64,000 nt of DNA, taken from the NCBI GenBank assembly GCA_963666485.2, contig CAXXUO010000008.1:96001-160000 (forward strand), written 5' to 3'. Origin of the DNA: Syntrophorhabdaceae bacterium (GTDB lineage: Bacteria; Desulfobacterota; Syntrophorhabdia; Syntrophorhabdales; Syntrophorhabdaceae). The notes under the pieces are model-generated. The model saw only the letters and a program-made list of their open reading frames with translations, did no database searches and had not been told where the DNA came from. The number at the start of each line of letters is the position of its first letter. The stretch's first letter is position 1. The translations under genes and the position numbers were made by a program. Shown here piece by piece: positions 17,443-18,713 of the stretch.

Positions 17443-17545
17443 GTGTCTTTGTATTTATTTCTTGGATTCGGGTGTGCACTACTTGAAGGTGTCACGATAA
17501 ATAAAGGTGGGCAGGGCGGAGATGGAAAACCTTGTATGATACTCC

Positions 17546-17722
17546 CCGTGGAATATCACGAACAATCCATGATAGAAAAGAGAAAAAGGTTGCCGGTGTG
17601 GCAGGCCGTAAAAACCAGGGGATGATATCCCGTATCCAAGCTCGGGCCGCCACACCTTCTCCTTATAAACCCGGACAGTTGCAGGGGACTCGCAGGAGAT
17701 CCCGCATTGCACAAGGAAGGGA
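17546..17722 (+). ncRNA. Putative bridge RNA with target-binding and donor-binding loops
   Basis: Stem GGTGTGGC/GCCACACC encloses TAAAAACC (17609-16) and ATCCAAG (17634-40); second loop has ACAGTTGC (17675-82) and ACAAG (17711-15); these match target and donor junctions. Ends approximate. Confidence 0.8.
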
Positions 17723-17744
17723 CACGGGAAAAAGGGGTGATATC

Positions 17745-18680
17745 ATGGACGACGTCTTCATCGGGATCGACATATCGAAAGAGCATTGTGACCTCGCGGT
17801 CATACCGGGCGGCACGCAGAAGAGGTTTACAAACGACGAGGAGGGCCACGAGGCGATCCTTGCCTTCGTACTTCCTCTCAACCCTTCCCGCATCGTCATC
17901 GAGGCGTCGGGAGGATACGAGATGGGAGCAGTGCGTACCCTGGCGGACGGCAAGCTTCCTGTTGTAGCGGTCAATCCCCGGCAGGTGAGGGACTTCGCGA
18001 AGGCGACAGGCAGGCTCGCAAAGACGGACACGATAGATGCAGGTGTCCTCGCGCAGTTCGCAAAGGCCATCGAGCCGGAGATACGGCCGCTTCCGGAGAA
18101 AGATGCCGAGGTGCTCCGTGCCCTCGTTGCCCGCAGGAGGCAGCTCATCCAGATGCTGACGATGGAGAAGAACCGCCTCGAGAAAGCGCCCGCTGCCGGA
18201 AGCGAGGATATCCGGAACCACATATACTATCTCACCGAGGCCTTGAAGAAGATCGACAAGGACATCTCGCGGACGATCAGGAAAAGCCCCCTGTGGAAGG
18301 AGAAGGAGACGATCCTCATGAGCATGCCCGGGGTCGGTCCCGTTATCTCCTGTAATCTCATCGCAGCCCTTCCCGAACTGGGGACACTGAACCGCAAGGC
18401 CATCGCGGCCCTTGTCGGGCTCGCCCCCTTCAACAGGGACAGCGGCAGATACCGGGGAACACGGACCATATGGGGAGGCAGGTCTCATGTCAGGGCCATA
18501 CTGTATATGGGGACCATCAGCGCGATCAAGTTCAATCCTGCCATCGGGGCCTTCTATAAACGGCTCGTCGAAGCGGGAAAGGCCAAGAAAGTTGCGATTA
18601 CTGCCTGCATGAGGAAGCTTTTGACCATTCTGAATACCATGATGAAGAACAAGACAACGTGGATCGAGGTCACCTCGTGA
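17745..18680 (+). CDS. IS110 DEDD recombinase/transposase, 311 aa
   Basis: IGIDISK (D), VIEASG (E), [16 protein letters not shown] (D,D), PGVG, GLAP..RDSG (Ser), ACMRKLL; ATG 17745 after AAGGGG. Confidence 0.96.
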
Positions 18681-18713
18681 AGAAGAAATCAGTTGACATC
18701 GAACACAGTTGCT

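Follow-up and report, generated by a model that had tools for sequence, protein, structure and literature searches.

The 64,000-nt window, by which the whole stretch of DNA analysed is meant, carries an intact and apparently recently active IS110 jumping gene, which is most likely directed by its own predicted guide RNA to the foot of CGTC-type REP palindromes of a single subtype. The element is very probably an autonomous insertion sequence that belongs to the IS621 clade and is mobile through bridge recombination. The first-pass annotation had called it an IS110/IS621-type bridge recombinase, and this is supported by the protein family, by identical copies with the same ends, and by covariation both within the RNA stems and between guides and targets. 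Two points go beyond that annotation: the site of insertion is a REP palindrome, and the genome carries several copies of the element.

Between its two CT dinucleotides (Table 1) the element spans 1,179 bp, and it has a single ORF, coding for a 311-aa recombinase that scores above the cut-offs of Pfam DEDD_Tnp_IS110 and Transposase_20 and of NCBIfam NF033542, 'IS110 family RNA-guided transposase' (239.5 bits, cut-off 140). Its only matches in the PDB are ISCro4 (E 4e-38, the best) and IS621 (E 1.8e-35), and alignment with the latter pairs D9, E53, D95, D98, and S233 with IS621 D11, E60, D102, D105, and S241, upholding the earlier statement that the DEDD residues and the C-terminal serine are intact. 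The recombinase thus places the element in the IS110 family, as do its short core and sequence-specific insertion, with all four full copies having a CT core in AAAAC-CT-TGGAT. Public sequence collections hold the recombinase as a 4-member cluster.

The element is flanked by a cyclase-domain gene (15742-17310, minus strand) and by etfA/etfB-type genes (minus strand). The former codes for a 522-aa protein with a C-terminal adenylate/guanylate cyclase domain and an N-terminal part that has no Pfam match, conserved at 73-90% across seven same-genus loci. Immediately upstream of this gene is a 13-bp direct repeat (TATACAGTCTAAA, 17345-17357 and 17378-17390, spacing 33 bp), possibly binding sites for a regulator, and an inverted repeat with an A-run at 18812-18842 is terminator-like for the etfA gene (minus strand).

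A search of the genome for other copies returned three more full ones, so that the four, on C2, C3, C5, and C8, are 100% identical over 1,179 bp and have identical CT cores but different flanks. Their left flanks read GCAAAAC, CCAAAAC, GAAAAAC, and GGAAAAC, and all four right flanks begin with TGGATCCCGG; the empty target GGAAAAC-CT-TGGAT and the circular donor ACAGTTG-CT-TGTAT proposed from the window copy were found just as proposed. A truncated, 5'-only copy (G000:C4:148777-149178, 399 bp, with one substitution and a 3-nt insertion) has the left flank GAAAAAC. It retains the entire predicted bridge RNA, with the insertion falling in the donor-loop hairpin, lacks most of the recombinase and the right end, and is followed by other repeated DNA and more REPs. 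A donor-like 14-mer at C1:1002380 was considered as another element and rejected, and tblastn found no further IS110 recombinases in the genome.

It is quite unlikely that this is a real bridge system that is now inactive, or that the identity of the four copies stems from assembly collapse of older, diverged copies. Short-read contigs do collapse the element into one piece, one copy is truncated, and neither a circle nor a transcript was seen: no RE-LE joint was present in the assembled read contigs, which drop rare forms, and coverage from the one RNA run (X19) touched the REP only. Against this, no damage is visible in the reading frame, the catalytic residues, the guides, the handshake, or the boxes of the promoter, and the contigs of two runs of one sample have no letter differences, though contigs drop rare variants. 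An orthologous empty allele was not found among the same genus, in which 13 of 19 other genomes matched a query spanning the neighbouring cyclase gene and the seven loci examined have neither the element nor the REP. Read-contig joints that skip the element were rejected as an empty allele, their source being paralogous REP pairs; one of them matches the empty site at C3:152197.

TABLE 1 Features of the IS110 element and its target, in window coordinates
Feature	Position	Strand	Details
Upstream CGTC-type REP	17413..17451	+	CGTC tag, 9-bp stem, 5-nt loop, CCA tail, then AGTGTCTTTG
Left target GGAAAAC, target positions 1-7	17524..17530	+	
Left CT core	17531..17532	+	Boundary common to four full copies and the truncated copy
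Right donor TGTAT	17533..17537	+	
-10 box TATGAT of putative promoter	17535..17540	+	Formed on circularisation
Predicted bridge RNA	17547..17744	+	Start placed from the junction promoter; weak 5' stem-loop 17547-17571
Target-binding loop	17595..17656	+	Outer stem 17595-17607/17645-17656; inner hairpin 17619-22/17628-31
Left target guide TAAAAACC	17609..17616	+	Positions 3-8 match all four occupied sites
Right target guide ATCCAAG	17634..17640	+	7/7 complement of CTTGGAT
Target-loop handshake guide CT	17641..17642	+	C can pair with donor G7; assigned from IS621
Donor-binding loop	17668..17721	+	CCC 17670-72/GGG 17719-21; inner stem 17685-91/17696-17703
Left donor guide ACAGTTGC	17675..17682	+	8/8 to donor
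Right donor guide AT + 3-nt bulge + ACAAG	17706..17715	+	7/7 discontinuous complement of CTTGTAT
Donor-loop handshake guide GA	17716..17717	+	G can pair with target C7; assigned from IS621
IS110 recombinase, 311 aa	17745..18680	+	D9 17769, E53 17901, D95 18027, D98 18036, S233 18441
-35 box TTGACA of putative promoter	18693..18698	+	Separated from the -10 box by 17 nt once the ends are joined
Left donor ACAGTTG	18705..18711	+	
Right CT core	18712..18713	+	From copy comparison
Targeted CGTC-type REP	18714..18743	-	Right target TGGAT (18714-18) made up of the CCA tail and the first two bases of the stem

The reading as an intact bridge system draws on the non-coding left end, which has two internal loops with the conserved A and G bases of IS621-type RNAs, an 8-nt left donor guide and a discontinuous right donor guide that fit the donor junction, and target guides whose complementarity to their targets is accompanied by covariation across 20 guide sets, kin among which are not independent. 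Every motif of the first loop described earlier was located: the closure by GGTGTGGC (from 17595) and GCCACACC (from 17649), both target guides, and the GGGAT/ATCCC hairpin (from 17619 and 17627). The second loop was likewise located, with ACAAG starting at 17711, and its right donor guide is refined by the addition of the AT at 17706-07. The match of the left target guide at 6 of 8 positions stands and is typical of the copies, because target positions 1-2 vary among them (GG, GC, CC, GA, and GA). The handshake bases C17641 and G17716 fit donor G7 and target C7, respectively, and the second base of each handshake guide is left unpaired by the exchange. Membership among the IS1111-type elements with seekRNAs, a group described as having subterminal inverted repeats, is unlikely, given the two-loop RNA at the left end and the IS621-clade protein.

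The IS621 bridge RNA has flipped bases A43, A67, A116, and A150 and syn bases G48, G72, G121, and G155 (Hiraizumi 2024, PMC11208158), with equivalents here at A17603, A17627, A17668, and A17699 and at G17608, G17632, G17673, and G17704. All eight are invariant in 12 of 12 aligned RNAs (distinct left ends, at least 56% protein identity), and each A-to-G pair is 5 nt apart, as in IS621. On a structure drawn after the IS621 model, 98.4% of the cells in these 12 left ends are paired, and changes on both sides are present at 12 of the 26 stem pairs (none of 500 shuffles; 0-3 pairs in slid controls), counts that, like the permutation counts given below, overstate significance because the orthologs are related. 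Single-sequence folding gave a left-end fold no better than shuffles (z -0.90) and did not recover the donor loop as the minimum-energy fold; with RNAalifold, the two inner hairpins came out along with the stem of the target loop, and the donor loop was closed differently. An Rfam scan of 17300-18950 returned no bridge-RNA family and three sub-threshold chance matches.

With the ends joined, the RE-LE junction would carry a sigma70-like promoter, TTGACA-17-TATGAT; judged against the sigma70 consensus, 20 of the 30 distinct end pairs give a junction promoter close to it. A promoter is reconstituted at the RE-LE junction in IS621 (Durrant 2024, PMC11208160). By analogy with that system, the element would leave as a circle with its right and left ends joined, and the promoter so formed would drive an RNA of ∼190 nt from the left end. 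The donor loop would pair with ACAGTTG-CT-TGTAT and the target loop with NNAAAAC-CT-TGGAT; a recombinase tetramer would cut beside the CT cores using Ser233 and the DEDD site, and the top strands would be exchanged with the help of the position-7 handshake pairs, inserting the element. For the excision of IS621, cut-out and single-strand copy-out are both under discussion (PMC13626964; 10.64898/2026.08.31.748434). As the guide would read a sequence at the tail of a repeat that is abundant and intergenic, the element would have about 31 landing sites, presumably of low cost.

The target NNAAAAC-CT-TGGAT is derived from the left and right flanks of the copies, and all four full copies are at the same base of one CGTC-type REP subtype. 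CGTC-tagged REPs are described as having a CGTC tag, an 8-9 bp stem starting with AT, a 4-5 nt loop, and a CCA tail, and as occurring in many copies and often as inverted pairs (PMC3733652). The repeats on both sides of the element (17413-17442 and 18714-18743) have a 9-bp stem starting with AT and a 5-nt loop, and the upstream one is the inverted partner of the targeted REP and belongs to a subtype other than the targeted one. Genome-wide, a pattern search finds 292 CGTC-type REPs; their subtypes differ in a conserved extension past the tail (AAAGAC[AG]C versus AAAACCT), and inverted doublets of unlike subtypes are frequent. An element that mobilises the REPs was also considered and is rejected, because the repeats lie outside the CT cores and 292 REPs stand against 5 element copies.

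Once the four copies are taken out in silico, the genome contains 31 occurrences of the 12-mer formed by target positions 3-14 (0.3 expected from composition), all of them in CGTC-type REPs, and 4 of these sites are occupied. None of the 41 sites of the one-mismatch TGGGT subtype is occupied, nor is any of the 131 AAAGAC[AG]C-type REPs, which are commoner than the targeted subtype; the chance of four of four copies falling in 31 of 292 repeats is ∼1e-4, and in 31 of 72 it is ∼0.03. The exact 14-mer of the window's target, sought as empty sites in the genome, is present empty six times.

All four occupied sites and all 31 guide-matching 12-mers are thus in hairpin repeats, target positions 13-14 are the first stem bases of the REP, and the right-flank hairpin measures -7.9 to -10.5 kcal/mol at eight of eight REP-clade sites. 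These observations would fit a dual recognition, in which the guide is needed and the REP hairpin 3' of the core acts as an additional structural gate, mirroring the 5' stem-loop of ISPpu10, for which a preprint describes a hairpin gate (10.64898/2026.03.19.712850). This is unlikely, however: the genome has no hairpin-free guide-matching site, so that the association cannot separate sequence from structure, and in a sister clade with an 80-85% identical protein the 14 listed flanks reach only -0.6 to -4.1 kcal/mol, which argues against the gate being required.

Steering by the guide RNA itself is addressed by the orthologs. Both ends were parsed in 57 of 120 ortholog loci. Of these, 11 were dropped because the target-loop pattern failed (L042 and L029 among them) and another 13 because the left flank was truncated, so that 33 rows, forming 20 distinct guide sets, entered the comparison. 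The pattern was written after the sequences had been seen, although it drew on no information about the targets. With cores excluded, the left guide matches its own target at 4.88 of 7 positions (2.33 when permuted) and the right guide at 4.68 of 5 (1.53 when permuted), and none of 100,000 permutations, in which kin are not independent, reaches either observed mean. Matches are present in 6 and 8 of the 20 guide sets at positions 1 and 2, in 16-19 at positions 3-7, and in 17-20 at positions 10-14. The handshake pairs fit in both loops in 18 of 18 guide sets, including A:T and T:A variants.

This variation of guides with targets across 20 guide sets makes it highly improbable that the protein alone recognises the REP and that the guide-like matches are relics or chance. 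Short motifs do often arise singly by chance: when the 212-nt left end is put through 100,000 dinucleotide shuffles, the left target guide 6-mer is found in 17.5%, the right target guide in 3.9%, the right donor guide 5-mer in 24%, and the left donor guide 8-mer in 0.08%. The ordered target-loop pair, though, appears in 77 shuffles, the ordered donor-loop pair in 3, and all four guides in order in none. Locus L043 is in the same target as the window element despite mismatched guides, whereas L042, with a one-base change in its right guide (ACCCAAG), is inserted in the TGGGT repeat subtype, the guide change tracking a one-base change of the repeat. Other misfits are L058 and L086 (2 of 7 on the left target guide) and L081 (2 of 5 on the right), and the left donor guide of L044 has one donor mismatch. 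Retargeting of relatives by changes of a few guide bases is well supported by these comparisons, and such natural guide changes indirectly favour recombination that would be reprogrammable through the guides.

Three further loci are irregular. At L027 and L048 an extra C before the core shifts the left flank by one base relative to the left guide, reflecting either imprecise insertion or an assembly artefact. L010 has a closely related left end, whose guide TAAGAACC matches an AGAAC flank, but its right core is TC instead of CT; it is probably degenerate, and its protein match is poor. Some metagenome contigs share one flank and not the other and may therefore be chimeric.

Among named relatives, the closest come from a Syntrophorhabdus MAG (83%), and matches at E<=1e-60 are present in 6 of 68 other genomes of the family. 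In a tree of 22 proteins, the REP-targeting group (5 rows, support 100/98) stands apart from the sister group (6 rows, weaker support of 83/80). The sister group, with 80-85% protein identity, has the right guide GTTCCAG and sites reading CT-GGAAC; these sites are without a strong hairpin, and several are in 7-mer repeats, most clearly at L047 (period-7 identity 0.86, the others 0.33-0.62). Short arrays of 7-mer repeats in the flanks of L045, L047, L049, L050, and L051 are the apparent target of the sister clade, and the window's genome has 91 [AG]AACCTGGAAC sites and no copy of the sister element.

A broader proposal is that within this 80-87% identical clade, a few guide substitutions moved the element between the REP tail TGGAT, the subtype TGGGT, and the 7-mer sites GGAAC, and that the REP branch may moreover use the 3' hairpin as a structural gate, on the other side of the core from the gate in ISPpu10. 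As a joint claim it is unlikely, because the 3' gate is its uncertain part; if true, the clade would be a natural experiment in bridge-RNA retargeting and in the gain and loss of a hairpin gate.

Since earlier publications cover the mechanism, the habit of targeting REPs, and a close ortholog, the element leaves understanding unchanged. Whether this ortholog had been catalogued was left open by the first-pass annotation: an 85%-identical ortholog is already in Durrant 2024, and the window element's own target-loop sequence was not found in the available parts of supplementary files 4 and 5 of that paper, in which gaps in the alignment can conceal a match. File 5 contains the donor 14-mer 424 times. 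A literature search pairing Syntrophorhabdus with IS110 found no paper, and 'Syntroph' is absent from the main text of Perry 2025 as available. What the element adds to the pool of candidate orthologs for genome editing is a compact 311-aa, apparently recently active recombinase from anaerobic Syntrophorhabdus-like bacteria, with a right target guide that is natively full-length and with close relatives that offer natural one- to few-base guide changes tracking target changes.

Among the closest known systems is IS621 (Durrant 2024, PMC11208160; Hiraizumi 2024, PMC11208158), with which the element shares a DEDD and serine recombinase, a CT core, REP targets, a left-end RNA (predicted for the window element) with target and donor loops and handshake bases, the boxes of a junction promoter, a discontinuous right donor guide, and a right donor that reads TTGTAT from the core T on. 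The target of the window element differs, as had been claimed, with A6, T10, and G11 in place of G6, A10, and C11, and donor positions 6-7 are TG rather than AT. The right target guide natively matches at 7 of 7 positions, compared with 4 nt in wild-type IS621. The end of the left target guide falls 8 nt past the conserved G rather than 9, and the right donor guide has a bulge of 3 nt rather than 2.

Sequence 1609 of the covariation set in Durrant 2024 (supplementary files 4 and 5) matches L044 in the parts shown, with 85% protein identity. It shares with the window element the right target guide ATCCAAG, the donor 14-mer, and a position at the foot of the same kind of REP, and differs in its left guide (TACAAACC versus TAAAAACC); in the accessible parts of that paper it is present as an alignment row, with no test or discussion found. 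ISCro4/IS622 (Perry et al. 2025, 10.1101/2025.05.14.653916; PDB 9t56) has the same 14-nt target and donor logic and handshake guides, but its protein is distant, and it has been shown to be active in human cells.

The repeats themselves share the tag, the 9-bp stem starting with AT, the 5-nt loop, the CCA tail, and the inverted pairs of the CGTC-tagged REPs in PMC3733652; the available text of that paper names no Syntrophorhabdus-like hosts and no dedicated transposase for these REPs, whereas here an IS110 element lands in them. ISPpu9, ISPpu10, ISPa11, and ISRm19 resemble the window element in that all copies are at one REP position (Tobes and Pareja 2006, PMC1525189; 10.64898/2026.03.19.712850), although their hosts and repeats differ from those described here. 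The ISPpu10 hairpin is on the 5' side of the core and engages the left target by pairing, whereas that of the window element is 3' and overlaps the right target.
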